32,000 nucleotides of DNA, from NCBI RefSeq assembly GCF_023169545.1, contig NZ_AP019769.1, forward strand, positions 630,001-662,000, written 5' to 3'. Made by a program: the position numbers and the translations under genes. Position 1 is the stretch's first letter; each line of letters opens with the position of its first letter. The notes below the pieces were generated by a model that saw only the letters and a program-made list of their open reading frames with translations, did no database searches and was not told the DNA's origin. Shown here piece by piece: positions 5,158-32,000 of this stretch. Source of the stretch: Nanobdella aerobiophila (lineage in GTDB: Archaea; Nanobdellota; Nanobdellia; Nanobdellales; Nanobdellaceae).

Positions 5158-5607
5158 ATGTCGGATCTTGTAGAAGATTTAGAATATAATAGAAAACTAA
5201 AGGAAGTATTGCATATATATAATGTCTCATTAAAGAATAATAAAGGACTGGAAACTATAAGAAATTTTATTAAATCGGCTGTGGATTATTATGATTATGT
5301 AATAGAATTATTTCTAGAGCGGGAATATAAGAATAATAAAATAAATGAGATACCAAAGACCCCAATAGAGCGCTATAATCTATTTCTTCATCTAATAAAT
5401 GATAAGGACATTGAAAATACTATGATTTATTATAAGAAACTAAGAACTTGTCTAAATTCTCATATAACAATACAAAATGAATATAGAAAAACTATGATAA
5501 TAGTATGTAAAGGCTACGAAACTGAGAATAAATTAACTATTAAGGATATTAAGGATATTATAGAAAATATAAGGAAATTTTCAAATTTAATAGTAAAATA
5601 TATTTAA
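5158..5607 (+). CDS. Hypothetical protein (149 aa), no recognisable motif
   Basis: Intact ORF whose stop overlaps the start of the downstream MinD-like gene (TAATG). Lys/Asn/Ile/Glu-rich and predicted helical. Confidence 0.5.
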   Translation: MSDLVEDLEYNRKLKEVLHIYNVSLKNNKGLETIRNFIKSAVDYYDYVIELFLEREYKNNKINEIPKTPIERYNLFLHLINDKDIENTMIYYKKLRTCLNSHITIQNEYRKTMIIVCKGYETENKLTIKDIKDIIENIRKFSNLIVKYI

Positions 5608-6365
5608 TGGCTAAGATAATTACCATATCTTCTGGAAAAGGTGGTGTAGGAAAAACCTTCTTTTCAATAAACTTATCTAGAGCATTATCAAAATTAGATT
5701 ATAGGGTTTTATTGGTCGACCTAAATTTAACAACTCCAAATGTATCAATAAATCTAAATCTTGGACATTTAGAAAACAATTTACATAAATATTTAAGAAA
5801 TGAAATAGATGATATAAATAAATGTATAATTAAGTTTAAAGAAAATTTCTATATATTACCAGGTAGCTTAGATATAAATGATATTTCATTTATATCTTTT
5901 GAAAGACTTCACAAAATTACTTTAGAACTATATAATGATTATGACTTTATAATAATAGATTCTGCTGCAGGAATTGGAAGGGAGTCTTTAGAAGCATTAA
6001 AAATTGGAGAAGAACTATTCATAATTACTAATTATGAAAAATCATCATTAGTAGATGCCTATAGAGTTATAAAAGTTGCTAATAATCTAAATACGAATAT
6101 TAAAGGCATTATAATAAACAAGGTAAAAAGGAAAATAAATTATATAAAAATTGAAAGGTTCTTAGGAAAAAACATATATGGAATAATACATTATGATGAT
6201 AATGTAGATAAATCTATAGAAAATGGTATGACTTTAATAGATTATAATATTAATAGTATAGCGTCTATAGATATAATAAAAATTGCTGAAAAGATTACAG
6301 GAAAAGATTTTGAAGAAACTAAAAATATTTTAAATGTTCTAAAAAATATATTTAGATGGAGATAG
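5607..6365 (+). CDS. MinD/ParA/Mrp-family P-loop ATPase
   Basis: Deviant Walker A SSGKGGVGKTFFSINLS near the N-terminus; Walker B-like FIIIDSAAG. Confidence 0.85.
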   Translation: MAKIITISSGKGGVGKTFFSINLSRALSKLDYRVLLVDLNLTTPNVSINLNLGHLENNLHKYLRNEIDDINKCIIKFKENFYILPGSLDINDISFISFERLHKITLELYNDYDFIIIDSAAGIGRESLEALKIGEELFIITNYEKSSLVDAYRVIKVANNLNTNIKGIIINKVKRKINYIKIERFLGKNIYGIIHYDDNVDKSIENGMTLIDYNINSIASIDIIKIAEKITGKDFEETKNILNVLKNIFRWR

Positions 6366-7510: not shown

Positions 7511-8554
7511 ATGGAAGATATAAGAAATATATTAAAAGAACGAATAATAAAAGATTATATAAATACAGGAAAAGATCCTTTAAATAATATAATTGGACAA
7601 GAAAATTCAAAAAGACAAATATTATCATCTATATTGTCTGGAAGAAATATATTAATTATTGGTCCTCCAGGTACAGGTAAGACAACAATAGCAAAGAATC
7701 TATCTTTATTATTACCAGATATAGATTTTCCAGCTAATATACCATTTTGGGCGTATCCAGAATTTCCTTTTGTCCCTGAAGAGTATAGAAAGAAGTGGGA
7801 AGAGGGACCATTCATAAAACTCCACGGAAATGATAGATTTATCAGAATTCAAGGTTCTTATGATATATCTGTAGAGGACTTAATTGGAGATATAGATCCT
7901 TCAAAAGCTTTAAAATATGGAATACATTCCATAGAATCCTTTATACCAGGTAAGATATTTAGGGCCCAACATGGTATATTATTTTTTGATGAGATAAATA
8001 GGGCTCCACCAAAAGTTCAAAATTTATTATTAGAACTATTAGAAGAGAAAAAGATAACGATAGGTGCATATGAATTTCAGATTCCAATGGATATAATATT
8101 TATTGCCACTATGAATCCAGAAAATTATTATGGTACAGAAAAAATATCCGATGTGTTATTAGATAGATTCGATATAATAAATTTAAATTATCCAAAAAAT
8201 ATAGAAGAAGAAAAAAAGATAATATTAAAATATGGAAAGAATTTAAATATAGATTTTCCAGAAAATTTAATCGATCTATATCTAAATTTTATATTTGAAT
8301 TAAGAAATGATGATAAATTAGATAAAAAACCATCTCCAAGATCTAGCATCGGTATATATGAGAAAGCTCAATCATTGGCAATATTAGATAAAAAAGATAA
8401 GGTAGAAATACAACATATATTCGAAGCTATATTATCTGTACTGCCGCATAGGATTAGATTAAAACCTGCATACAAAATAGAAGATAATGAAGAAGGATAC
8501 ATAAAAAATAAATGGTCCTCATTCAATATAGGAAAAGGATTTCGGAGTAGATAA
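7511..8554 (+). CDS. MoxR-like AAA+ ATPase
   Basis: Walker A ILIIGPPGTGKTT and the diagnostic MoxR box ILFFDEINRAPPKVQNLLLELLEEKKITI, followed by IATMNPE...LLDRF. Confidence 0.85.
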   Translation: MEDIRNILKERIIKDYINTGKDPLNNIIGQENSKRQILSSILSGRNILIIGPPGTGKTTIAKNLSLLLPDIDFPANIPFWAYPEFPFVPEEYRKKWEEGPFIKLHGNDRFIRIQGSYDISVEDLIGDIDPSKALKYGIHSIESFIPGKIFRAQHGILFFDEINRAPPKVQNLLLELLEEKKITIGAYEFQIPMDIIFIATMNPENYYGTEKISDVLLDRFDIINLNYPKNIEEEKKIILKYGKNLNIDFPENLIDLYLNFIFELRNDDKLDKKPSPRSSIGIYEKAQSLAILDKKDKVEIQHIFEAILSVLPHRIRLKPAYKIEDNEEGYIKNKWSSFNIGKGFRSR

Positions 8555-8633
8555 TAATATAAATAGACCTGGAGAAAGCTTTAAGGAAAAAAGCAGGATA
8601 AATGATAATATAAAAGATATTGTAGAAGATATA

Positions 8634-9602
8634 TTGAGAGATGGAAATAGTATATTCGATATAAATAAGTATTATGATAATAGAAAAAGATATTCTAAAT
8701 TTATATCAAAGATTATAAACATAGACGAAAAGAGGATAAGAGACGATAAAAATGAAAGATTTGAAAAAGAACTAAAGAATTCACTGGAGAACATAAAAAA
8801 TATAATGATAAGAGAAGGGTATTTAAAAGAAGACGGACAATTATCTGAACAAAGTTTAAGATTATATGCAAAAGAGATAATTGGCGATATAGAAAAAGAA
8901 ATATCTGGAATATTTGAGTATGGAAAATTTTATTCTAATAATATAGGAAAAGATGAATATCTATTCGGAAAAAACTTTGGCATAGGTGATAAATATAACG
9001 AAATTGATATTAAAAATACTATAAGAGAATATATTAAAAATAGAGATATAAAATTTATTGTAGAAAAGAAAAGAGAAAATAAGGGCGGTAAATATATAAT
9101 ATTGCTAGATATATCTGGAAGCATGATAGGAAAAAAGATATATGAAGCTAAAAAGGCACTAATTGTATTGATAGAAAAAATATTGATAGATAATAACGCC
9201 GTCGATCTAATATTATTTAACGATAAATCAATAAAGAAATATTATAATATAAATAAAATAGAAAATATTATAGATATATTAAAGCTTGTTCCTAATGGTA
9301 GCACAGACATCGCCTCCACACTATATGAAGTATATAATGATATAGATAGTTTTTCACATATAATAATCATTACTGATGCATTGCCTACATATGGAGAAAA
9401 ACCTATTGATAGAACATTAGAAATTACAAAGATAATAAGTAATAAAGCATATATATCAATAATTGGTATAGGATTAAATCAGGAGGGAGAGAGGATAGCA
9501 AAACTTATAACTAAATATGGAAATGGAAGATTATTTATAACTAAAAATATAGAAGACTTGAAAAAATTAGTTCTTATAGAATATGAATTGTCTAAATTAT
9601 AG
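8634..9602 (+). CDS. von Willebrand factor A (VWA) domain protein, partner of the MoxR-like ATPase
   Basis: MIDAS motif ILLDISGSM, with downstream GSTDI and IIITDA. The start is uncertain: TTG at 8634 is the first ATG/GTG/TTG start-type codon, and the frame is open from 8532 with no ATG, GTG or TTG before it. Confidence 0.8.
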   Translation: MRDGNSIFDINKYYDNRKRYSKFISKIINIDEKRIRDDKNERFEKELKNSLENIKNIMIREGYLKEDGQLSEQSLRLYAKEIIGDIEKEISGIFEYGKFYSNNIGKDEYLFGKNFGIGDKYNEIDIKNTIREYIKNRDIKFIVEKKRENKGGKYIILLDISGSMIGKKIYEAKKALIVLIEKILIDNNAVDLILFNDKSIKKYYNINKIENIIDILKLVPNGSTDIASTLYEVYNDIDSFSHIIIITDALPTYGEKPIDRTLEITKIISNKAYISIIGIGLNQEGERIAKLITKYGNGRLFITKNIEDLKKLVLIEYELSKL

Positions 9603-16242: not shown

Positions 16243-16527
16243 TTATGGATTCTTAAATATATACTCTGTTCCATTTTCCATAATAACTATATTAGTCCCA
16301 TTATAATAACATATTATATTTTCCTCTAAACAGATGTTATAATATGTATTATTTATTATAAATGATTCATTTGGATACAATAATAGCTTTACATAAAAAT
16401 CCTGGCCAATATAATAACCAAAATTGTTTTTATAATAATAATTATTATCAAATTTTGACAAAAACACTAGAGTAATAAATAATATTAATACTAGATATAA
16501 TAATATAAATTGAGATTTCATTTCCAA
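16243..16527 (-). CDS. Small secreted/membrane-anchored protein with a pilin-like hydrophobic N-terminus (94 aa)
   Basis: N-terminus M(EM)KSQFILLYLVLILFITLVFLS shares MKSQF with the 28093 ORF. Tyr/Asn-rich with several N-x-S/T sequons. Overlaps the upstream ORF by 10 nt. Confidence 0.55.
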   Translation of the reverse strand: MEMKSQFILLYLVLILFITLVFLSKFDNNYYYKNNFGYYIGQDFYVKLLLYPNESFIINNTYYNICLEENIICYYNGTNIVIMENGTEYIFKNP

Positions 16528-16862
16528 TAAATATTTACATAATATATTGTGCCATTTAATATGAAAAAATCCTCTATGCCTTGATCAGTCTGATTAAGTG
16601 GAATATTATAAAAATATGTTATATTATCTATTTCCACATAATAATACGGTAATATACTGCTAACAATTTGATACAAAGAAGAATTCAACTGAATTGTATT
16701 ATTCAAATCTTGATAATTTATAGAAATTAATGAAGAATATAGATCATCTTTAATATAACCCCTTGTATAATATACACTATAAAAGTTTGAGGTTAATAAG
16801 AAGTACATAATAATTATTAAAATTACCAATTCTATAAATATTGTAATATTAAATGACCTCAT
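16518..16862 (-). CDS. Small secreted/membrane-anchored protein with a pilin-like hydrophobic N-terminus (114 aa)
   Basis: MRSFNITIFIELVILIIIMYFLL, then a Tyr/Asn-rich body with at least six N-x-S/T sequons. Start/stop overlaps on both sides. Confidence 0.55.
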   Translation of the reverse strand: MRSFNITIFIELVILIIIMYFLLTSNFYSVYYTRGYIKDDLYSSLISINYQDLNNTIQLNSSLYQIVSSILPYYYVEIDNITYFYNIPLNQTDQGIEDFFILNGTIYYVNIYWK

Positions 16863-17239
16863 GATACTAAAACCTCAACCAGGTATAACGAATGATCATA
16901 AAAACATACTCGCCTAAATTCTATATAATTATTAGTCACATTTTCCCCATAAAAAAATTTTTGACCATTACTTAGATTTTCATATATTATTTCATATGGT
17001 TGAGAACTCAAGTTATCTATATATAAAGAATTAAAATTGTTTAAAGTTAAATTACATGTATTATCTGTTATATAATTAGTCAAATATTCCATTATATTCC
17101 TACCGGTCATAAATTGTATATAACTGTTTTGATAATTAAAATTTATTCTATATATAAATGTCAATTTATCCAGAATTAATAAACTAGCTAAAAATATAGT
17201 TAATGATACAATTAGCAATTCAAAAAATCGATCTAGCAT
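16859..17239 (-). CDS. Small secreted/membrane-anchored protein with a pilin-like hydrophobic N-terminus (126 aa)
   Basis: MLDRFFELLIVSLTIFLASLLIL (an F-E-L-L-I-V segment reminiscent of type IV pilin N-termini). Sequon-rich. First gene of a three-gene overlapping string. Confidence 0.55.
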   Translation of the reverse strand: MLDRFFELLIVSLTIFLASLLILDKLTFIYRINFNYQNSYIQFMTGRNIMEYLTNYITDNTCNLTLNNFNSLYIDNLSSQPYEIIYENLSNGQKFFYGENVTNNYIEFRRVCFYDHSLYLVEVLVS

Positions 17240-17857: not shown

Positions 17858-18522
17858 AAGGTGTAATAAAGGAAAAGAAAATAGAAGCTATATTGGATAG
17901 AGAAATAAAGAATGCATTAAGAGGCAAATTAATAAGTAGAGTTCATTATTTAAAAGTTTCAATGGGAGATAAAGTCATAATATATTGTGCGAGACCTAGA
18001 CTAATACTTGGAAGATCGAATGAGAACTTAGCGATGATTAGAGAAATAGCTAAAAAAATAATAAATACAAATGACCCAATTATAGAAGTTTTACCAGTTG
18101 AGAACCCATTACTAGACTCCGAAATAGTAGCAGATCTAATAGCATCTCAAATAGAAAGATTTGGAAATAGAGCTGCTAGGAGGATAATACAGAAGATAAT
18201 GGAAGAAGTCTTAAATGCTGGTGCACTAGGTATAGAAATAAGAATAACAGGAAAGGTAATAGGAGATAGATCTTCTACAATAAGAGAACAAAAAGGATAT
18301 ATTAAAAAATCAGGAGAATTGAATAAAATAACTGGTAAAAGTATAAGATATGCTAAACTAACTTCCGGTACTATAGGAATACAGGTAAGGATATTAAGAT
18401 CTGGAGAGTTATTACCTGATAGAATAAATATAAAGGATATATCGGAAATAAATCCCGAAGAATTAGAAAAAATAGATCCTTCCTTACTAGAAAAATTAGC
18501 AAAGGATAATGGAGAACACTGA
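17839..18522 (+). CDS. rps3p: Ribosomal protein S3 (uS3)
   Basis: KH-domain N-terminus, ..IASQIERFGNRAARRIIQKIMEEVLNAGALGIEIRITGKV... Follows L22 in the canonical order. Confidence 0.9.
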   Translation: MAAKNIEGVIKEKKIEAILDREIKNALRGKLISRVHYLKVSMGDKVIIYCARPRLILGRSNENLAMIREIAKKIINTNDPIIEVLPVENPLLDSEIVADLIASQIERFGNRAARRIIQKIMEEVLNAGALGIEIRITGKVIGDRSSTIREQKGYIKKSGELNKITGKSIRYAKLTSGTIGIQVRILRSGELLPDRINIKDISEINPEELEKIDPSLLEKLAKDNGEH

Positions 18523-19429
18523 ATGTATAGCCTTTTATAAACTATTTTTGACGAAGAATATAAATACAGATGGACGCCTCGTTTTAAACCTATCTCAGTA
18601 TCTCTGTTATATATTTAATAATGATATATACAAAATAATGGATAAAATTGAAAAATTTGATTTAGACGTCCTCATAGGTCACTTTAAAGATATTAGAGAG
18701 AATATCGAACAAATAAAGAGAATAATTAAAGATAAATATCCAGGTGAGGAGGCTGCAGAAGTATTAGAAACAAAATTAGAAGGATATGGATTAGAAGCTC
18801 TCAAAAGATCATTAAATTATGGGAAAAAGGTTTGTTTAACAGATATCCTAAATAAGCATTATAATCTAAACCTATATGCACACTCTAATATTGAATTTAT
18901 AATAGAAAAAGTCTTAGAGAGTGAAAAAACAAATATCTTTATAGAAACAAAAAGAGAAAATGAAGAATACATAAGATATATAAAGGTAAACAAGGAACTT
19001 TTAGAAGTTTCGACACAAAAAAAATCTTTTAGTTATATAAATAAATATAAATTACCAAGAAAAGAATTTCTAGATAATGAAACTTCTTTTATTATATCTA
19101 TATTTTTATACTATAAAGGCATAAAACCTCCCGAGTATATAAATGATATGGCAATAAAATATATAAAAGAAAATAATATATCCAAAGCATTGATTTGCAT
19201 TTATAATAATAAAGATTATAAATCTCTAAAAAATAAAAGAGTCTTAATAGAAGACATCAATACACATATTAAAGTAATAGATATAATAAGAACATATGAA
19301 AAGATTATCAATGGTATATATCGTTTTTTGGAGGATAATCTATCAACCATTAAAAAAATATCAACAGAGGAAATAGAGGAAAAACAAAAAACAATAGAAT
19401 ATTATCTATATTCAATGCGAGAAGGTTAA
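18509..19429 (+). CDS. Hypothetical protein (306 aa), no recognisable motif
   Basis: Intact ORF overlapping the S3 stop by 14 nt. It occupies the position where L29 normally follows S3. Confidence 0.5.
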   Translation: MENTECIAFYKLFLTKNINTDGRLVLNLSQYLCYIFNNDIYKIMDKIEKFDLDVLIGHFKDIRENIEQIKRIIKDKYPGEEAAEVLETKLEGYGLEALKRSLNYGKKVCLTDILNKHYNLNLYAHSNIEFIIEKVLESEKTNIFIETKRENEEYIRYIKVNKELLEVSTQKKSFSYINKYKLPRKEFLDNETSFIISIFLYYKGIKPPEYINDMAIKYIKENNISKALICIYNNKDYKSLKNKRVLIEDINTHIKVIDIIRTYEKIINGIYRFLEDNLSTIKKISTEEIEEKQKTIEYYLYSMREG

Positions 19430-21462: not shown

Positions 21463-24207
21463 TTATGCCAAGATACATTCGGACCAGCCGCAATCTAAAC
21501 AGGTAATACATCCACCCTCATGCTTTAATCTTACACTTTTACAAACAGGGCAATTATCTGTAGATATATTATCATTAAAATTATTATTATTATTTAATTC
21601 CAACTTTCTAATTTCTAAATTTATTTTTATATCCCCAATATTCATCTCTGTATACCATTTTGGTAAATCTATCTTAAAGCTTTTTAATATACTTATAGTT
21701 TTATTCTCTATTTTTCCTTCCCTAATTAACCTAAAGTAATCCTTAAATCTCGATTTTGTTGCTTCCGCAGGTGCATAATATACTTGTACAGACTTTGAAC
21801 CATCTCTATATATTGTAATTCCCTTACATCCCACTTTATATGCAAATAAATAAGCTAAATATATATCTTCAGATGTTGCCCAGCTTGGCATATTTATTGT
21901 CTTAGATATTGATGTTGTTATCCATATCTGTGCTACTGCTTGCGCTCTAATATGGTCCCACCATGGTAGATCTAATGCTGTAATAAATATCGCCTTTAAA
22001 TCATCTGGTATTGAATCTATATTATATAAACTACCTCCATTATCAGATATTTGCTTCAAAATTTCTTCTTTATATAAACCCTTCTCCTTTAACTGTCTTT
22101 CAAATTCTATATCCACATAGAAATAATTACCTGCAGTAACTCTTTTTTCATATACTAAAGAATATGCAGGTTCTATACCAGAAGAAGTTTCTACTAGCAT
22201 AGAAATAGAACCTGTTGGTGCTATCGAAGTAACTTCTACATTTCTTATACCATTTTCCAATATTTCATTCCTTATCTTTTCCCAATCTAGATTCCATAAT
22301 TCTTTGTGGTAATATCCATCTACTGGCATCTCTCCATCTTTATAAGATGTTTCGTTATATTTTGGAAATACACCCCTTTCCTTTGCCCTATATATAGATT
22401 CTTCCATTGAATAGTATGTTAAATATTCTGTAATTTTCATTAAGAGTCTGTATCCTTCTTCTGATGAGTAAGGTATTTTTAGAGCAAATAATGCATCAGC
22501 TAAACCCATATAACCTAATCCAACTCTTCTTACTGCCTTAGAAGATTCTTCTATCTCTTTTAATGGATATTTATTCATATCTATTACATTATCCAAAAAT
22601 CTGTACGACCATCTTATAGTTTCTATATACTTATCCCAATTGAATTCCGCTTTTCCATCTTTAAATTCTATCATTGCATATAAATTAATTGATCCTAAAT
22701 TACAAGACTCATATGGATATAAAGGTTGTTCTCCACATGGATTGGTTGCTCTTATTGGACCTCTATATTTATATTGCATATTTCTTTTATTTATATTATC
22801 CATAAATAAACATCCAGGATCTGCTTTTTCCCATGCTACATAAGAAATCTCCGATAATAGTTGTTTTGGATCTATATAGTTTACTATTACTTCCTTATCA
22901 ACTTTATCTATATCAAAGCCTTGTTCGTCTGGAAATTTTATATTGTGTTTCCTTAATAATCTTGGATTTAATAATGGATATGGTTTATTTTCTGCCAGAT
23001 AATTCCAAAAATTCGAATCAAACATTACAGATATATTAAAATTTTCTAATACTCCTTCTTTCTCTTTAGCATGTACAAACTTCATAATATCTGGATGCCA
23101 AGATTCGATTATCCCCATATTTGCACCTCTCCTTTTGCCACCTTGCTTAACTACATCTGTAACTGTATCAATTATTTTCATAAAAGATATTGGACCTGAA
23201 GCTATTCCACCTGTGGACCCTACAACATCACCTTCAGGTCTTAATTTAGAATAATTTATTCCTATACCCCCACCTGACTTAAATATCATTGCCGCATCTG
23301 TAGCAGACTTCATAATAGAAGCCATATCATCATCTATATCCAATACAAAACATGCTGATAATTGCCCCAATCTTGCACCGGCATTAAATAGTGTAGGTGA
23401 ATTTGGCATAAATTTCTTAGAAGCCATTAAATCAAAATATTTCAGATAGTTCTCATAGTATTGATCAAAATCTCCATTATTTAACCTTTTTATAAATTCT
23501 GACCATGAAATCTTCATATGCCCCCTCTCATTTAAATAATCATAAAGATATTTCATTCTTTCAAGATGATATTTATTCCACTTTAATTTATAAGAATTTC
23601 CTTGTTTTTTTAGCCCAATCTCTCCTTCTTCTAGATTCAATTCTTCTTTTGGTTTTATATCTTGCTTTCCAGATTTGTCATATATCCTTTCATCATACAA
23701 TATATCTGGTATTACTATCAATGCTGCGACCCTTTCAAACATTTGTTTAGGTCCTTCTAATATTTGTAATTTCTCGTCTTTTAATAGATATCTATTTACC
23801 ATTAACCTTATTGAATTCAGAGAATATTTCTTCGCTACTTCCTCTTCATAAAAGCTTCCTAATAAATTTATTTTTTCTTTTCTTATATTCTCTTTCTCTT
23901 TTCTATAAGTTATGTATGCTTTTGCCACTTCATATAAATCAAATTTAACCAGAGTTAATTCTACAATATCTTGTATTTCTTCAACAGAAGGGATAGAATT
24001 TCCATCATATTTATTTTCTATAATATTTAATATATAATCTAATATCTTGTCTAGAGTTTCTTTATCATATCTTTTTGTCGCTCTCATAGCTTTCTCAATA
24101 GCATTATATATTCTTTTTGGATCGAATTCATCTATTCTTCCATCCCTTTTTCTAATCTTTTTTACCGATATATTTGAAAAATTTTTTTGACTAAAATTGT
24201 TTTCCAT
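21463..24207 (-). CDS. nrdJ: Class II (adenosylcobalamin-dependent) ribonucleotide reductase with an N-terminal ATP-cone and a C-terminal zinc finger
   Basis: ATP-cone VKKIRKRDGRIDEFDPKRIYNAIEKA. Active site ATNPCGEQPLYPYESCNLGSINL. C-terminus CPVCKS...GGCITCLDCGWSEC. No intein-sized insertion. Confidence 0.9.
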   Translation of the reverse strand: MENNFSQKNFSNISVKKIRKRDGRIDEFDPKRIYNAIEKAMRATKRYDKETLDKILDYILNIIENKYDGNSIPSVEEIQDIVELTLVKFDLYEVAKAYITYRKEKENIRKEKINLLGSFYEEEVAKKYSLNSIRLMVNRYLLKDEKLQILEGPKQMFERVAALIVIPDILYDERIYDKSGKQDIKPKEELNLEEGEIGLKKQGNSYKLKWNKYHLERMKYLYDYLNERGHMKISWSEFIKRLNNGDFDQYYENYLKYFDLMASKKFMPNSPTLFNAGARLGQLSACFVLDIDDDMASIMKSATDAAMIFKSGGGIGINYSKLRPEGDVVGSTGGIASGPISFMKIIDTVTDVVKQGGKRRGANMGIIESWHPDIMKFVHAKEKEGVLENFNISVMFDSNFWNYLAENKPYPLLNPRLLRKHNIKFPDEQGFDIDKVDKEVIVNYIDPKQLLSEISYVAWEKADPGCLFMDNINKRNMQYKYRGPIRATNPCGEQPLYPYESCNLGSINLYAMIEFKDGKAEFNWDKYIETIRWSYRFLDNVIDMNKYPLKEIEESSKAVRRVGLGYMGLADALFALKIPYSSEEGYRLLMKITEYLTYYSMEESIYRAKERGVFPKYNETSYKDGEMPVDGYYHKELWNLDWEKIRNEILENGIRNVEVTSIAPTGSISMLVETSSGIEPAYSLVYEKRVTAGNYFYVDIEFERQLKEKGLYKEEILKQISDNGGSLYNIDSIPDDLKAIFITALDLPWWDHIRAQAVAQIWITTSISKTINMPSWATSEDIYLAYLFAYKVGCKGITIYRDGSKSVQVYYAPAEATKSRFKDYFRLIREGKIENKTISILKSFKIDLPKWYTEMNIGDIKINLEIRKLELNNNNNFNDNISTDNCPVCKSVRLKHEGGCITCLDCGWSECILA

Positions 24208-27250: not shown

Positions 27251-28060
27251 ATGAAAATTGGTTTGGAGATACATCAGCAGATAAATACTAAAAACAAATT
27301 ATTCTGTAATTGTAATACAGATCTAAAAGAAGATTATAAATATAGAATTGAAAGAAAATTAAGAGCTACTTTGAGCGAAACTGGAAAAAAAGATATAGCA
27401 GCAGAATATGAAACAATAAAAGATAAAAAATATATATATGAATATGATAAAGATTATGCTTGTTTAGTAGAATTGGATGAAGAGCCTCCAAAATATATAA
27501 ATTTAGATGCATTAAAATTTGGAATATTAATTTCCACATATTTTAATATGTACATACCTAGAGTGTTACAAATTATGAGAAAAATTGTTGTAGACGGATC
27601 TAATACATCTGGTTTCCAGAGAACACTATTATTATCATTAGATGGAAAATTAAATTATAAAAATATAGGAATTGGAACTCTATGTATTGAAGAAGATGCA
27701 GCTAGAAAGATAGAAGAAAAAGATGATTATATAATATATAGGCTGGATAGATTAGGAATACCATTAATAGAGATATCTACAGATCCCGATATAAAGGATC
27801 CAAAAGAAGCAAAAGAAGTAGCCGAATATATTGGATTAATATTAAGGCTATCTGGAAAAGTAAAAAGGGGTTTAGGAACGATAAGACAAGATCTAAATGT
27901 TTCAATAGAAGGAGGGAATAAGGTAGAGATAAAAGGTGTACAGAACTTAAAAATCATTGATAAAATTGTAGACCTTGAAGCAAAAAGACAAGAAAAAATT
28001 TTAGAACTAATAAATATTGCTAAAGAAAGAGGCATAGAAGGATATGTATTAGAAGAATAG
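27251..28060 (+). CDS. gatE: Glu-tRNA(Gln) amidotransferase subunit E, N-terminal part only (269 aa; full-length GatE is ~620 aa)
   Basis: MKIGLEIHQQINTKNKLFCNC, CLVELDEEPP, VVDGSNTSGFQRT, YRLDRLGIPLIEISTDP, KRGLGTIRQDLNVSIEGGNKVEIKGVQNL. The ORF stops where the AspRS-like insertion domain normally begins, and the downstream genes are unrelated. Confidence 0.8.
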   Translation: MKIGLEIHQQINTKNKLFCNCNTDLKEDYKYRIERKLRATLSETGKKDIAAEYETIKDKKYIYEYDKDYACLVELDEEPPKYINLDALKFGILISTYFNMYIPRVLQIMRKIVVDGSNTSGFQRTLLLSLDGKLNYKNIGIGTLCIEEDAARKIEEKDDYIIYRLDRLGIPLIEISTDPDIKDPKEAKEVAEYIGLILRLSGKVKRGLGTIRQDLNVSIEGGNKVEIKGVQNLKIIDKIVDLEAKRQEKILELINIAKERGIEGYVLEE

Positions 28061-28092
28061 ACTTATATTTTTTAATAAATTTTATTTAAAAT

Positions 28093-28572
28093 ATGAAAAG
28101 TCAATTTGGTACTATAATAGTAGAGGTAATATTATTTATAGTAGCTGCTATAGCTGCATATATCTTTGTATCTACTGCTTATACAAATTTAAATGATATA
28201 AGTAATGCAGCAACCGCAAACTCAAAATCTTTGGAAAGTCAATTACAAACCTATATAACCATAGATTCTTGCGCATATAATAGTTCTACAGATTTATTAT
28301 ATATATATTCAACCAATAGAGGAAATAATGTATTAAATCAAAACTTAACATTATTATTTATTAATGGAGTTTTAATAAATAATACAATAATTACCATAGC
28401 AAATAGTAATACTGGTACAGCTGCATGGGGTCCTTATGATACTATATTAATAGAATCTAATATAACTCTTAATTCAAATTTTTATAATATAAAGCTAGTT
28501 ACAGACACTGGTGCTTCTGCAGAAAATATAATATATGTAAATACAACAAGTAATATATGTACAATAGAATGA
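28093..28572 (+). CDS. Pilin/archaellin-like protein with a class III signal peptide-like N-terminus (159 aa)
   Basis: MKSQFG|TIIVEVILFIVAAIAAYIFVST, then a Asn/Thr/Ser-rich beta-type body (..STNRGNNVLNQNLTLLFINGVL..) resembling FlaG/FlaF/pilin domains. Several N-x-S/T sequons. Confidence 0.6.
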   Translation: MKSQFGTIIVEVILFIVAAIAAYIFVSTAYTNLNDISNAATANSKSLESQLQTYITIDSCAYNSSTDLLYIYSTNRGNNVLNQNLTLLFINGVLINNTIITIANSNTGTAAWGPYDTILIESNITLNSNFYNIKLVTDTGASAENIIYVNTTSNICTIE

Positions 28573-29015
28573 GATCAGACTTAGGATCAATAATAGGAGC
28601 AATAATAGGATTTGTTATATTTTCATTATCTTTATTTGCTTTATATTTTATATTAAATAACTCTTTTGCATCATATAAATATACTGCAAATTCTATAAAT
28701 GAAGAAATAAGAAATATTATAGGAGAGAATATTGAATTTTTAGATAATCAAACTACATATATAAATCCAAATATTACAATATATAATAATGGAAATAAGG
28801 CCTTAGATTTATCTTGTTTTCAATTATATGTAAATGGTTATTATACATCCTTTAATTATAGCATAAATTATTTATATCCATCAAATTTATTATTACCTGG
28901 AGAAAATGCTACCATATATTTTTCAAACAACTATATAGAGAATAATTCTTATAATTATATAATATTTATGAGTTGTTATGGAGACAGGTTTCAAACTTTA
29001 ATATATGTAAGTTGA
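28557..29015 (+). CDS. Pilin/FlaF-FlaG-like protein with a class III signal peptide-like N-terminus
   Basis: The likely true start is ATG at 28569 (ATGA overlap with the upstream stop), giving MRSDLG|SIIGAIIGFVIFSLSLFALYF. Body motif ITIYNNGNKALDLSCFQLYVNGYY. Confidence 0.6.
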   Translation: MYNRMRSDLGSIIGAIIGFVIFSLSLFALYFILNNSFASYKYTANSINEEIRNIIGENIEFLDNQTTYINPNITIYNNGNKALDLSCFQLYVNGYYTSFNYSINYLYPSNLLLPGENATIYFSNNYIENNSYNYIIFMSCYGDRFQTLIYVS

Positions 29016-29025
29016 TATATTTAAA

Positions 29026-30993
29026 ATGAGATTACAAGGAGAATCATTAGCGGTAATAATATTATTCATTATTGGAGCTATATCAGCTTTTATGCTATAT
29101 AATATATTAAGACCAAATTATAATTCTTTAACCCCCACTGGAGAATCTATCGCAAATTCATTAAGTATTAATTTTCAATTATTAAATTATTATATAACAA
29201 ATAATACTTTATTTGTATATGTAAAACCATCAGAACCTGTAAATGCATCTCAAGTATTTGCTATAGTAAATAATAACTCTGCTCTTGTATACCCATATAA
29301 TTCAAATAATGATATTGTTAATCCAAATCAAAATCAATTATTGTTAATTGTTGATAATTTATCTCAAACTTCTTTGGATCAAAATGGCAACTATAAGATA
29401 ACCATAGGTTTATCAAATGATATAATAGGAATATTTAGTATTAAATATGAATCAAATCCTTTACAAAAATTCTTTCACCCTATAATAGAAAATAATATTA
29501 CAAATATAATTAACAATGTAACGACAAACGTAAATAATTATTATGAATTAATATTATATAATACGCAATCTATTCCAACTCCAGCACCATTTCAACAAGA
29601 TATAGCTATATGTAATGGATCTACATCATTAGTACAGAATCCTTATTTTAGTATAGTTGGTAATGCATCTTCGACAGGTTCAACATCTGCCTCAGTAACA
29701 TTACCTACAGGTGCTAATATTTATTTATGTAATGGAGGTGATGGAAATGGTGCTTTATCTTCATATTCCTGGACTGCTCAAGAAACAACACAAAATACTT
29801 ATGCAAGTTTAGGATATCAAAGTTCTAATGTGTGTTCAGATTCTTCAGGATCTACTGATATTGTAGTTGGAGGTGTTGCCATAAATACTAATGAATATGA
29901 AAATTTTGTTGGAACAACATTTAATGGTGTAAATTCTTTCTCTTATACATATAATGTAACTAATACATCTAATGTTGTCATTTCTGTTGCATGTGGATGG
30001 TATGCATGCACATCCGTAACATTACCTTCTGGATGCCAAAAGTTATTTGATACCATAGGAGGAGATACATATGAAACTACGGTAATGGGTGTATGTTATA
30101 ATCAAACAGCAGGTAGTTATACAGTTTCTGGATCATTAAATGGAGGAGGCTATGTTTCTGTAGGTATATATGAATTTAGTACAATCCCTCCAAGGTTGAA
30201 TACATCCCTATCTTATGTAAATAATATTACTTTATATAATGAAATAAATTCTAATGGATCTAATGTATACTTTTTTTCTAATCCTTCTAATCCTACAGGA
30301 TCATTATTATATTCTTGGTACGAAGGACAAGAAAATACTAATGGAGTATCATGCGACATTTGGTGGGTAAATATTAGTAATGGAATACCTGCAAATAGTA
30401 ATATAACAATATATATGGATATAGGAAATACAAGTACAAATTATTATTCACAATATTATCCATATGTAGGTGTATCTTATAATGTTTTAGGAACATTTAA
30501 TTATGATAATGGTAATTATGTATTTAATTATTATGAAAAATGGGGGAATTTAAGCTCTTTACCAGTAGGGTGGAATAATTTAGATTCTGTAAGTGTATCT
30601 TTTAGCCAAAATTATACATCTTTTGTTCAAACAAGTTCTAATAACTATTGGTATGGTTTATATTATCCATTATCGAATTCTAATTTACAAAATAGACCTT
30701 TGTTATTATTATCATATTATTACTCCTATCCTAACGGAAATACAAACTATTTTGGAATCACAAGCCAAACACCAGTAGTCAGTAATACAAATTATTATAC
30801 ATACTATGTAACACAAACATCCCCAGGTTATTATAATAGCTTGTTATATGTTTCTTCTGGAACTGCTACAGATACAATAGGATATTTAGTATATGTCCCC
30901 GGCAGTATAACTGGTTCTTATTTTAATTTATATTGGACTGCTGTTGCTTCATATCCTCCTAATGGAGTTATGCCTGAAGTCTTTATACAATAA
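29026..30993 (+). CDS. Large (655 aa) pilin-anchored, heavily sequon-loaded surface protein with a lectin/LamG-like region; candidate adhesin
   Basis: MRLQG|ESLAVIILFIIGAISAFMLY N-terminus. Roughly 20 N-x-S/T sequons by hand count. The Asn/Ser/Thr/Tyr-rich body has paired Cys. The segment LLYSWYEGQENTNGVSCDIWWVNISNGIPANSNITIYMDIGN resembles the DUF2341/concanavalin-like lectin motif as I recall it (unverified). Confidence 0.6.
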   Translation: MRLQGESLAVIILFIIGAISAFMLYNILRPNYNSLTPTGESIANSLSINFQLLNYYITNNTLFVYVKPSEPVNASQVFAIVNNNSALVYPYNSNNDIVNPNQNQLLLIVDNLSQTSLDQNGNYKITIGLSNDIIGIFSIKYESNPLQKFFHPIIENNITNIINNVTTNVNNYYELILYNTQSIPTPAPFQQDIAICNGSTSLVQNPYFSIVGNASSTGSTSASVTLPTGANIYLCNGGDGNGALSSYSWTAQETTQNTYASLGYQSSNVCSDSSGSTDIVVGGVAINTNEYENFVGTTFNGVNSFSYTYNVTNTSNVVISVACGWYACTSVTLPSGCQKLFDTIGGDTYETTVMGVCYNQTAGSYTVSGSLNGGGYVSVGIYEFSTIPPRLNTSLSYVNNITLYNEINSNGSNVYFFSNPSNPTGSLLYSWYEGQENTNGVSCDIWWVNISNGIPANSNITIYMDIGNTSTNYYSQYYPYVGVSYNVLGTFNYDNGNYVFNYYEKWGNLSSLPVGWNNLDSVSVSFSQNYTSFVQTSSNNYWYGLYYPLSNSNLQNRPLLLLSYYYSYPNGNTNYFGITSQTPVVSNTNYYTYYVTQTSPGYYNSLLYVSSGTATDTIGYLVYVPGSITGSYFNLYWTAVASYPPNGVMPEVFIQ

Positions 30994-31020: not shown

Positions 31021-31093
31021 GGTCCAGGTAGCCTAGCGGTAAGGCGTCGGGCTGTGGACCCGAAGATCGGGGGTTCAAATCCCCTCCTGGACC
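31021..31093 (+). tRNA. tRNA-His(GUG) with a genomically encoded G-1
   Basis: G-1 (31021) lies opposite C73 (31093). Acceptor GUCCAGG/CCUGGAC. Anticodon loop CUGUGGA. T-arm GGGGG-UUCAAAU-CCCCU. Confidence 0.92.
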
Positions 31094-32000
31094 CTAATGC
31101 GTTTCCCAGCTAACTGAATATTCATAACCTAATAATTTTTTCATATAATTTTCTATAGAAAATTTTTCCTTATTAGTAATCTTACATAGATTATGCGCTA
31201 ATTTCAAAAATTTAGGATATTGAAAATCTTTATATATTTCTTCCTTTATAATTTCTTTTAATTTATTTATATTTATATTATCTAAGCTTTCTAATCTATA
31301 TATATGATCATTTACTCTGGCTCTAAAATATAATATATTTATGTTCCTATCAAATATATTATCATTAATTTTAGACATTAAATACTCTTTCAAATTCTTT
31401 TTTACGATATCTGTATAAAATATTTGATTTGGATATATTTTCATTAGGGCAATCATATCTGATCTTTCTAAATTATAAATATTCAAATTTAATATTCTTT
31501 TAGCTATAGCAATTATTTTTCCGTTATTTATTATATATTTAAAGTTATTCAAATATTCCTCTTTCCTTTTTTCTATAAGTTCATCGTATATTTTTGTATT
31601 AAATTTAGAAAATAATATTGAATCGGATATTATAGATCCATCAAAAAATATATAATTATCAATATATTTTGAAGCTAATTTATATTCTAAATTTTTTGCA
31701 AATAATGAAGAAACGTCATTTATATCTATTGTATCATTATCCGTCTTAAAAAATATATTTGGTAATATTTCTATATCATCAATTTTTTCATATATATTAT
31801 CCGAAACTATTACAGCTCTTGAATATATATAAGAAAAAGGACCTATAATTCCATTTATAAATGAAGAATCTATAAAACCATAATTATTCTTATTAATATC
31901 TACATCATCTAGATCTAATAATTTTATATTATTTTTTATATAACTATAATCATCAATTTTTAATTTATTTATCTTTTCTTCTATATTTTTTATTAATTCT
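31094..32000 (-). CDS. nurA: NurA-like 5'-3' nuclease, partial (reading frame open to the window edge)
   Basis: The ORF-track entry starts at TTG 31552, but I checked the frame codon by codon and found no stop up to 32000. The extended translation contains ..YGFIDSSF.., IFFDGSIISDS, IIAIAKR, YFRARVNDHIYRLE and QYPKFLKLAHNLCKI. These match the NurA motif pattern as I remember it. Confidence 0.55.
   Translation of the reverse strand, partial: ELIKNIEEKINKLKIDDYSYIKNNIKLLDLDDVDINKNNYGFIDSSFINGIIGPFSYIYSRAVIVSDNIYEKIDDIEILPNIFFKTDNDTIDINDVSSLFAKNLEYKLASKYIDNYIFFDGSIISDSILFSKFNTKIYDELIEKRKEEYLNNFKYIINNGKIIAIAKRILNLNIYNLERSDMIALMKIYPNQIFYTDIVKKNLKEYLMSKINDNIFDRNINILYFRARVNDHIYRLESLDNININKLKEIIKEEIYKDFQYPKFLKLAHNLCKITNKEKFSIENYMKKLLGYEYSVSWETH

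Follow-up and report, generated by a model that had tools for sequence, protein, structure and literature searches.

Nanobdella aerobiophila MJ1 is a cultivated thermoacidophilic member of the Nanoarchaeota that lives as an ectosymbiont of Metallosphaera sedula; an ectosymbiotic life had been surmised in the initial annotation of the DNA considered here. In a stretch of 32,000 nucleotides (nt) of its genome (called the window below), three consecutive plus-strand genes, open reading frames (ORFs) 1 to 3, were found to form a locus that is likely the pseudoperiplasmic stator/anchor module of the archaellum, consisting of the ORF1/ORF2 pair and ORF3 as a third paralogue. ORF1 and ORF2 are members of the ArlF/ArlG superfamily. 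The stator pair as such has been described before; of the third partner, which is conserved, and of its modular tail we found no description, and the locus does not represent a new class of filament. The genes and their parts are as follows (lengths in amino acids, aa).

28093..28572, plus strand: ORF1 (159 aa), a stator protein of the ArlF/ArlG family with an N-terminal hydrophobic helix and an archaellin-fold beta-sandwich
28569..29015, plus strand: ORF2 (148 aa; 152 aa from an alternative ATG at 28557), an ArlF-like stator protein
29026..30993, plus strand: ORF3 (655 aa), the third gene, with an N-domain and a long C-terminal module
29026..29460, plus strand: N-terminal part of ORF3 (aa 1-145), with a helix at 3-32 and a beta-sandwich at 50-140
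29539..30993, plus strand: C-terminal part of ORF3 (aa 172-655), a divergent DUF2341-like, beta-rich module

The three genes showed operon-like packing, in accordance with the overlap and short gap described initially. The conserved start of ORF2 was the ATG at 28569, which shares a 4-nt ATGA overlap with the stop codon of ORF1 (28570-28572), and the protein translated from this start (MRSDLG..., 148 aa) was identical to a database protein (P0133). ORF2 is predicted to be translationally coupled to ORF1 through this overlap. The spacing between ORF2 and ORF3 was 10 nt.

ORF1 matched Pfam PF01917 with 36.4 bits (cutoff, 29.5) over residues 9-144, and also matched the NCBIfam models of ArlF (NF052590; 1.3e-14) and ArlG (NF052591; 1.5e-9). 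All 11 members of the ORF1 family matched both models. The architecture of ORF1 was supported by the near full-length PF01917 alignment together with the hydropathy profile, in which the hydrophobic segment covered residues 1-33. ORF2 itself matched the ArlF model weakly (6.5e-4); its family, which was small in an exhaustive profile search, matched ArlF in 10 of 11 members, with a best value of 4.9e-16. The two families were remote paralogues of each other (hhalign, 88%), and orthologues of both are annotated by JGI as 'archaellum component FlaF (FlaF/FlaG family)'.

Sequence searches against the PDB with ORF1, ORF2, the family profiles, the N-domain profile of the third gene, and a DUF2341-bearing orthologue returned only noise or weak matches to the archaellin N-terminal helix, and a fold comparison was therefore needed. 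The AlphaFold2 (AF2) model of ORF2, with a predicted local distance difference test score (pLDDT) of 89, comprised a helix at residues 5-51 and eight strands arranged in a beta-sandwich. The top Foldseek match of this model was a Halobacterium archaellin (9eq7). Matches were also obtained to FlaF (4p94 and 4zbh, the soluble domain from Sulfolobus acidocaldarius; template modelling score, TMt, 0.54-0.61 for 4p94), to FlaG (5tuh; TMt 0.64, root mean square deviation 3.3 Å), and to the FlaF-FlaG complex (5tug and 6pbk). The initial impression that the first two proteins resemble FlaF/FlaG was thus borne out by the Pfam and NCBIfam matches and, for ORF2, by Foldseek.

The assignment of the two stator labels relies on P0150, the most distant member of the ORF2 family, which is encoded on a metagenomic fragment (L016). 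The gene upstream of P0150 looked FlaD/E-type in its translation, read by eye only, and the downstream gene begins with MGFS; from sequence, P0150 appears to occupy the place of ArlF in an operon of the euryarchaeal type (arlD/E-F-G fragment). P0150 was scored at 37 bits by the hidden Markov model (HMM) of the ORF2 family, compared with 14 bits by that of the ORF1 family. Because P0150 appears to stand in the ArlF position and is preferred by the ORF2-family HMM, ORF2 is tentatively regarded as ArlF-like and ORF1 as the ArlG counterpart, both labels being provisional.

A single strong hydrophobic segment was present at the N-terminus of each of the three proteins, with nothing comparable later in the hydropathy profile, which agrees with the N-terminal helices described initially. 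The three families were mutually related in profile comparison. Lysine and arginine together accounted for 1.5-3.4% of residues in ORF1 to ORF3 (2.5% in ORF1), compared with 15% in cytoplasmic neighbours, and all three proteins were rich in Asn, Ser, and Thr, a composition expected for ectodomains facing an acidic medium of pH 2.5. N-glycosylation sequons were frequent, but their counts equalled those predicted from the Asn/Ser/Thr-rich composition, and an enrichment of sequons was not accepted as evidence.

The initial annotation had read each N-terminus as a short basic segment ending in Gly that forms a class III cleavage site, and had treated the proteins as established substrates of the PibD/FlaK peptidase. 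Neither statement could be upheld. The FlaFind-type pattern is [KRDE][GA][ALIFQMVED][ILMVTAS]x3, and none of ORF1, ORF2, and ORF3 fits it. Among the trio proteins of other lineages, 3 of 17 matched the pattern, at residues 2-3, so that any cut by a prepilin peptidase would remove three residues and not five or six. Moreover, the proposed Gly was variable. In ORF3 it was replaced by Ser or Asn in all nine aligned orthologues and by Ser in three further orthologous loci, and in ORF2 by Ser, Thr, or Gln in distant relatives. In ORF1 it was invariant among close relatives only; of the five distant relatives, one (L018) kept Gly, and the other four had Ala, Ser, Thr, or no counterpart. Lys or Arg at position 2 was invariant (17/17 sequences). 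In S. acidocaldarius (PMC8667602), ArlF is secreted at full length, and an unidentified protease processes ArlG; the missing class III motif in the trio agrees with this processing.

The N-terminal 145 residues of ORF3 aligned MJ1 with distant lineages (BLASTP E values of 2e-11 to 1e-4), and in one of these (L018) the third gene consisted of the N-domain alone (142 aa). In the AF2 model of ORF3, block-mean pLDDT was ~77-87 over aa 50-140 and ~53 by aa 141-150. The N-domain profile matched the ORF2 family with an hhalign probability of 89.9% (E 1.7e-6) and the ORF1 family with 58-88%, and resembled the ArlF-like family more than archaellins. Further, the third gene of a distant locus (L013_g3) gave a weak PF01917 match (E 1e-3). 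The ORF3 model matched FlaF (4zbh) with a Foldseek probability of 0.99 and a TMt of 0.52, but at rank 49. The fold comparison proposed in the initial annotation thus succeeded for ORF2 and gave a weak result for ORF3. Profiles and model together suggest that the N-domain is a third, divergent, and remotely related paralogue with the ArlF/ArlG/archaellin fold. This domain is also the core that the third genes have in common.

The C-terminal module of ORF3 was common to more than 250 proteins of Nanoarchaeota, a few of which reach Pfam DUF2341. It ends in a conserved W..RAYPPNGVMP motif and is interrupted by a Cys-containing insertion of ~200 aa (aa 197-394), which was found only in MJ1, YN1, and one metagenome-assembled genome (MAG). 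The tail was predicted with confidence only at aa 170-200 and 290-470, where it is beta-rich. The ORF3 tail itself stayed below the threshold of Pfam DUF2341 (PF10102). Of its homologues, P0017 scored 31.8 bits and P0052 22.4 bits against this model (cutoff, 23.4). Clear DUF2341 domains were carried by the third genes of L013, L015, and L017, the first also containing Laminin_G_3 (1.4e-30); hhalign found no significant similarity between the ORF3 family and the LamG/DUF2341 third gene of L013. Homologues and a motif seen by eye are the basis on which the MJ1 tail is called DUF2341-like. The Foldseek search with the full ORF3 model was weak, because 290 residues had pLDDT <50; it gave weak matches to jelly-roll receptor-binding and carbohydrate-binding domains, and the jelly-roll and phage receptor-binding matches were not used as functional evidence.

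Two paralogues of ~500 aa in the same genome, P0064 (MJ1_0547) and P0098, carried the C-terminal module of ORF3 behind a MRSISPIIATIL N-terminus with a near-threshold match to Pilin_N. This N-terminus is of the Pilin_N type (MRS-ISPIIATIL); its putative leader comprises three residues, and Ser would stand at position -1. One of the two proteins is annotated as 'RNA-binding protein', which looks wrong. Both are possibly pilins or adhesins, and may be subunits of the 15-nm 'rough' filament. Since the module occurs behind Pilin_N-type N-termini in these paralogues, it behaves as a swappable extracellular 'head'.

The trio was kept in 18 loci, with the same order and the same overlaps in 12 family genomes and six more distant contigs. 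In the 12 genomes of Nanopusillaceae/Nanobdellaceae, which include YN1, Nanopusillus spp., Nanobsidianus stetteri, and Nanopusillus acidilobi, the order was Memo (minus strand), GatE-N, ORF1, ORF2, ORF3, and a NurA-like gene (minus strand). The distant contigs were more telling, because the trio was kept there while the flanks change, and the trio genes overlapped by 1-4 nt in these loci. Their distinguishing features were as follows.

L013: TruD upstream; third gene ≥699 aa long, with Laminin_G_3 and DUF2341 behind an N-terminus that matches PF01917 weakly
L015: third gene broken, with a DUF2341 fragment retained
L017: Memo now downstream; third gene of 591 aa with DUF2341
L018: third gene of 142 aa, a bare N-domain; RNA polymerase subunit D downstream
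L019 and L020: AAA_14 gene upstream; third gene with a DUF2341 motif

The trio arrangement is not due to chance. In the cultured strain Nanopusillus acidilobi 7A (CP010514.1; L012 10001-10920), three single-base insertions at or near homopolymers, two in ORF1 and one in ORF2, broke the reading frames; the ORF1 and ORF2 orthologues were intact in MAGs of N. acidilobi. The frameshifts in 7A reflect either sequencing error or pseudogenization of stator genes in culture.

ArlF and ArlG count among the proteins that define archaella as a system and, to our knowledge, are needed for every archaellum studied. Free cells of N. aerobiophila swim and carry 9-nm archaella, which show a 76-nm corrugated proximal segment and thorn-like decorations, both unexplained (PMC11104419). 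The MJ1 gene list names ArlB, ArlH, ArlI, and ArlJ and not ArlF/ArlG, and archaellum-like filaments were seen. According to the MJ1 annotation (Kato preprint), two 'archaellin-like' proteins without a signal peptide are encoded by MJ1_0772 and MJ1_0773. These are probably ORF1 and ORF2. In the same annotation, the archaellin genes MJ1_0449 and MJ1_0453 lie elsewhere in the genome. YN1 is listed with FlaBDEHIJF. Two papers list the sister genome Nst1 with flaD/E, F, G, H, I, and J (PMC3655853) and with a single FlaF and a single FlaG (PMC4858521). The initial idea of a detached structural filament module, representing an undescribed type of pilus or adhesin, gives way to an archaellum stator pair of the kind already listed for Nst1.

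No domain of ArlH/I/J, PilB/C, or A24 peptidase was detected in the window among 26 further ORFs (≥90 aa, outside the rRNA gene) or in three scanned flanking genes, in agreement with the initial statement that the window holds no assembly ATPase. The locus is thus detached from an ATPase gene, as had been claimed, but this is not a special feature, since archaellum genes are scattered in Nanoarchaeota (PMC3655853), and ArlB/H/I/J have been reported at other places in MJ1. Detachment from the motor genes is usual in these scrambled genomes and weakens the evidence from gene context, not that from homology; with no motor genes nearby, the connection with the motor is drawn from homology and the literature.

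By analogy with Sulfolobus and Pyrococcus, ORF1 and ORF2 would each be held by one membrane helix, with the beta-sandwich exposed to the acidic compartment beneath the S-layer. The ArlG-like protein would oligomerize, the ArlF-like protein would contact the S-layer, and the two would form a heterotetramer that keeps the ArlH/I/J motor stationary as the filament rotates. ORF3 would be co-transcribed and probably co-assembled with the pair, and its DUF2341/lectin-like C-terminal extension would most likely reach and bind the glycosylated nanoarchaeal S-layer. As a lineage-specific third paralogue, ORF3 probably serves as an S-layer- or glycan-binding anchor.

A broader proposal, which we put forward only tentatively and consider doubtful in its full extent, is that the archaella of Nanobdellota use a periplasmic module of three components (ArlG-like, ArlF-like, and the third paralogue) instead of the canonical two. 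The third paralogue would bear a swappable, lectin-like head (none, DUF2341, LamG plus DUF2341, or the MJ1 type) and would act either by anchoring the motor to S-layer glycans or as a subunit of the corrugated proximal tube or the thorns. If this is true and ORF3 is a tube or thorn subunit, the third paralogue could link swimming to host recognition. The initial proposal of the locus as a candidate for host-contact machinery found no evidence; only the lectin-like tail of ORF3 leaves a slight opening for it.

Several points weigh against a stator/anchor module. The equivalog cutoff of the NCBIfam models (110 bits) was not reached by ORF1 (54.5 and 38.0 bits) or ORF2 (19.9 bits), and the scan for ArlF/ArlG domains covered only the 32-kb window of the MJ1 genome. 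Both families scored better on the ArlF model than on the ArlG model, which leaves the F and G labels uncertain. In addition, the resulting G-F order would be that of Thermoproteota, although Nanoarchaeota carry euryarchaeal-type flaD/E (PMC3655853). For ORF3, the homology of the N-domain was only remote (probabilities of 58-90%), with no match to a curated HMM, and the full AF2 model was poor (pLDDT 62; 290 residues <50). Its C-terminal module also occurs on Pilin_N-type proteins, which fits a filament-borne adhesin equally well. Further, arlH/I/J were not found near the trio in any of the 18 loci (called genes within ±10 kb) or in the 32-kb window.

Among the other explanations, the most durable, though improbable in our judgement, is that ORF3, alone or together with ORF1 and ORF2, is a minor subunit whose archaellin-like N-terminal helix and domain are built into the archaellum filament, and whose projecting lectin-like tail provides the thorns, the corrugated 76-nm segment, or a tip adhesin for finding the host. 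It would account for the unexplained thorns and corrugated proximal tube on the archaella of N. aerobiophila (PMC11104419), and it is compatible with the archaellin-fold N-domain of ORF3 behind a long N-terminal helix and with the occurrence of the same C-terminal module on Pilin_N-type paralogues that resemble true pilins. DUF2341 proteins of archaeal type IV pilus (T4P) loci have also been proposed as PilY1-like tip adhesins (PMC4858521). However, ORF3 is linked to arlF/arlG-like genes and not to the archaellin genes MJ1_0449/MJ1_0453, it has no canonical class III motif and no conserved Gly, its N-domain is nearer to the ArlF-like family than to archaellins, and the third gene of one lineage (L018) has no tail at all.

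It is quite unlikely that ORF3 is an unrelated surface glycan-binding protein which merely lies downstream of arlG/arlF and shares no function with them. Its C-terminal module is indeed widespread and shuffled in Nanoarchaeota (more than 250 matches), and nanoarchaeal gene order around the locus is strongly conserved in general. Against this, the third gene stays with the pair even where the flanks change, it overlaps gene 2 by 1-4 nt in distant lineages, and the conserved part of it is the paralogous N-domain, not the tail. Least probable of all, by a small step, is that the trio encodes prepilin-like subunits (with class III signal peptides processed by PibD/FlaK) of a separate, undescribed host-contact pilus or adhesin: a hydrophobic helix follows a basic residue in all three proteins, a few distant orthologues fit the FlaFind-like motif at residues 2-3, and two T4P systems have been reported in Nanoarchaeota besides the archaellum (PMC6142677), but the specific HMM and fold matches were to ArlF/ArlG, which are stator and not filament proteins, no trio protein of MJ1 fits the motif, the pilin-like paralogues encoded in MJ1 differ at the N-terminus, which is of the Pilin_N type (MRS-ISPII), and an ATPase or platform gene stood beside the trio in 0 of 18 loci.

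Among DPANN archaea, swimming was first shown in N. aerobiophila, and its motor inventory is complete once the ArlF/ArlG pair is assigned to this locus. The third paralogue is a testable candidate for anchoring the stator to the non-canonical, heavily glycosylated S-layer of DPANN archaea, and also a testable candidate for the builder of the proximal tube and thorns seen by cryo-electron tomography.

The elements around the trio, of which the GatE fragment and the tRNA-His gene had been recognized correctly in the initial annotation, were as follows.

27251..28060, plus strand: GatE-N (269 aa), the upstream neighbour, outside the module (NCBIfam GatE, 4.5e-119)
28062..28077, plus strand: A/T-rich promoter-like block cTTATATTTTTTAATA, 16-31 nt upstream of the ORF1 ATG
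31022..31094, plus strand: tRNA-His(GTG), detected by both ARAGORN and Rfam, 28 nt 3' of ORF3

The 16-nt A/T block upstream of ORF1 (TTTATATTTTTTAATA) was identical across 11 related loci, and the 15 nt between the block and the ATG were variable. The block is probably the TATA/BRE (B recognition element) box of a leaderless or short-leader transcript, as judged from its position and conservation. T-rich runs were present between the end of ORF3 and tRNA-His, which marks the end of the unit. GatE-N aligned to positions 11-276 of 630 of the GatE profile (the N-terminal ~43%; NCBIfam, 4.5e-119). A split GatE is already known in Nanoarchaeota from NEQ245/396 of N. equitans and Nst1_197/449 of Nst1 (PMC3655853), and both the split and the position beside the trio were kept in all relatives examined. 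On the other side, a 152-aa ORF (31094-31552, minus strand) abuts tRNA-His and showed only a weak match to the NurA C-terminus (E 1e-3, positions 130-254 of 254). This NurA-like ORF was conserved downstream of the trio in relatives and may be another truncated or split gene.

The G+C content of the window was ~25% outside the 23S rRNA gene. The other ORFs of at least 90 aa were annotated in our analysis as housekeeping genes, including those for tRNA synthetases, ribosomal proteins, ribonucleotide reductase, a MoxR/VWA pair, Hsp20, Memo, and others. A MinD/ParA-type P-loop ATPase (5607-6365, plus strand) was start/stop-coupled to an upstream 149-aa ORF without a Pfam match (pair 5158-6365). 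FleN/MinD ATPases are listed among the archaellum/T4P-associated genes of Nst1, and the ATPase in the window could be a regulator of the FleN/MinD type. A MoxR-type AAA+ ATPase and a VWA-domain protein were adjacent (7511-9602, plus strand) in an otherwise minimal genome. Among the ribosomal protein genes lay three small overlapping ORFs of 94, 114, and 126 aa (16243-17239, minus strand) and a 306-aa ORF (18509-19429, plus strand), all without a Pfam match at E<=1e-3. The ribonucleotide reductase gene (21463-24207, minus strand) was unbroken in the window. In five related loci (L001, L005, L007, L010, and L011), its tblastn match was split by gaps of ~1.1-1.3 kb (two in YN1), which is consistent with inteins; an intein has been reported for Nst1.

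Compared with ArlF and ArlG of S. acidocaldarius and Pyrococcus furiosus (4P94, 4ZBH, 5TUH, 5TUG, 6PBK), ORF1 and ORF2 have the same size of ~150 aa, an N-terminal helix, and an archaellin-type sandwich. They likewise form an adjacent coupled gene pair (kept in 18 loci) and lack a canonical class III motif. Unlike the known arlF/arlG, they lie outside an arl operon, with no arlH/I/J, arlCDE, or arlX as neighbours, score far below the equivalog cutoffs, and are followed by a third paralogue. Their N-termini also differ: those of the trio read M-[KR]-x, compared with MGFS in the euryarchaeal-type fragment L016. The archaellins ArlA/ArlB (PF01917) share the fold and the N-terminal helix with the trio, but the helix of ORF1 and ORF2 is shorter, it has no [KR]G cleavage motif, their genes are not near archaellin genes, and the NCBIfam flagellin model gave an E value of 0.73 only.

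The third genes resemble the DUF2341 proteins of archaeal clade-1 T4P, which combine a hydrophobic N-terminus with a beta-rich ectodomain of the DUF2341/LamG type (PMC4858521). Those of L013, L015, L017, and L019 carry a true DUF2341, as do the proteins of T4P loci, and ORF3 of MJ1 is too divergent for Pfam. In contrast to the T4P loci, the partners of the third genes are an arlF/arlG-like pair and not pilins, an ATPase, or TadC. An adhesin function has only been proposed for the T4P proteins and is likewise putative for the third genes.

The closest known counterpart is the locus of Nst1 ('Nanobsidianus stetteri'), which lies beside the split GatE-N Nst1_197 and encodes an ORF3 orthologue, Nst1_194. 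Its counterparts of ORF1 and ORF2 have identities of 75% and 74%, respectively. In the Nst1 papers (PMC3655853, PMC4858521), FlaF and FlaG are reported, and the third gene is, as far as found, not discussed. With the ORF3 orthologue at Nst1_194 and GatE-N at Nst1_197, the FlaF/FlaG genes would be Nst1_196 and Nst1_195. Based on this gene order, Nst1_196 and Nst1_195 are very probably the published FlaF and FlaG of Nst1 and direct orthologues of ORF1 and ORF2.

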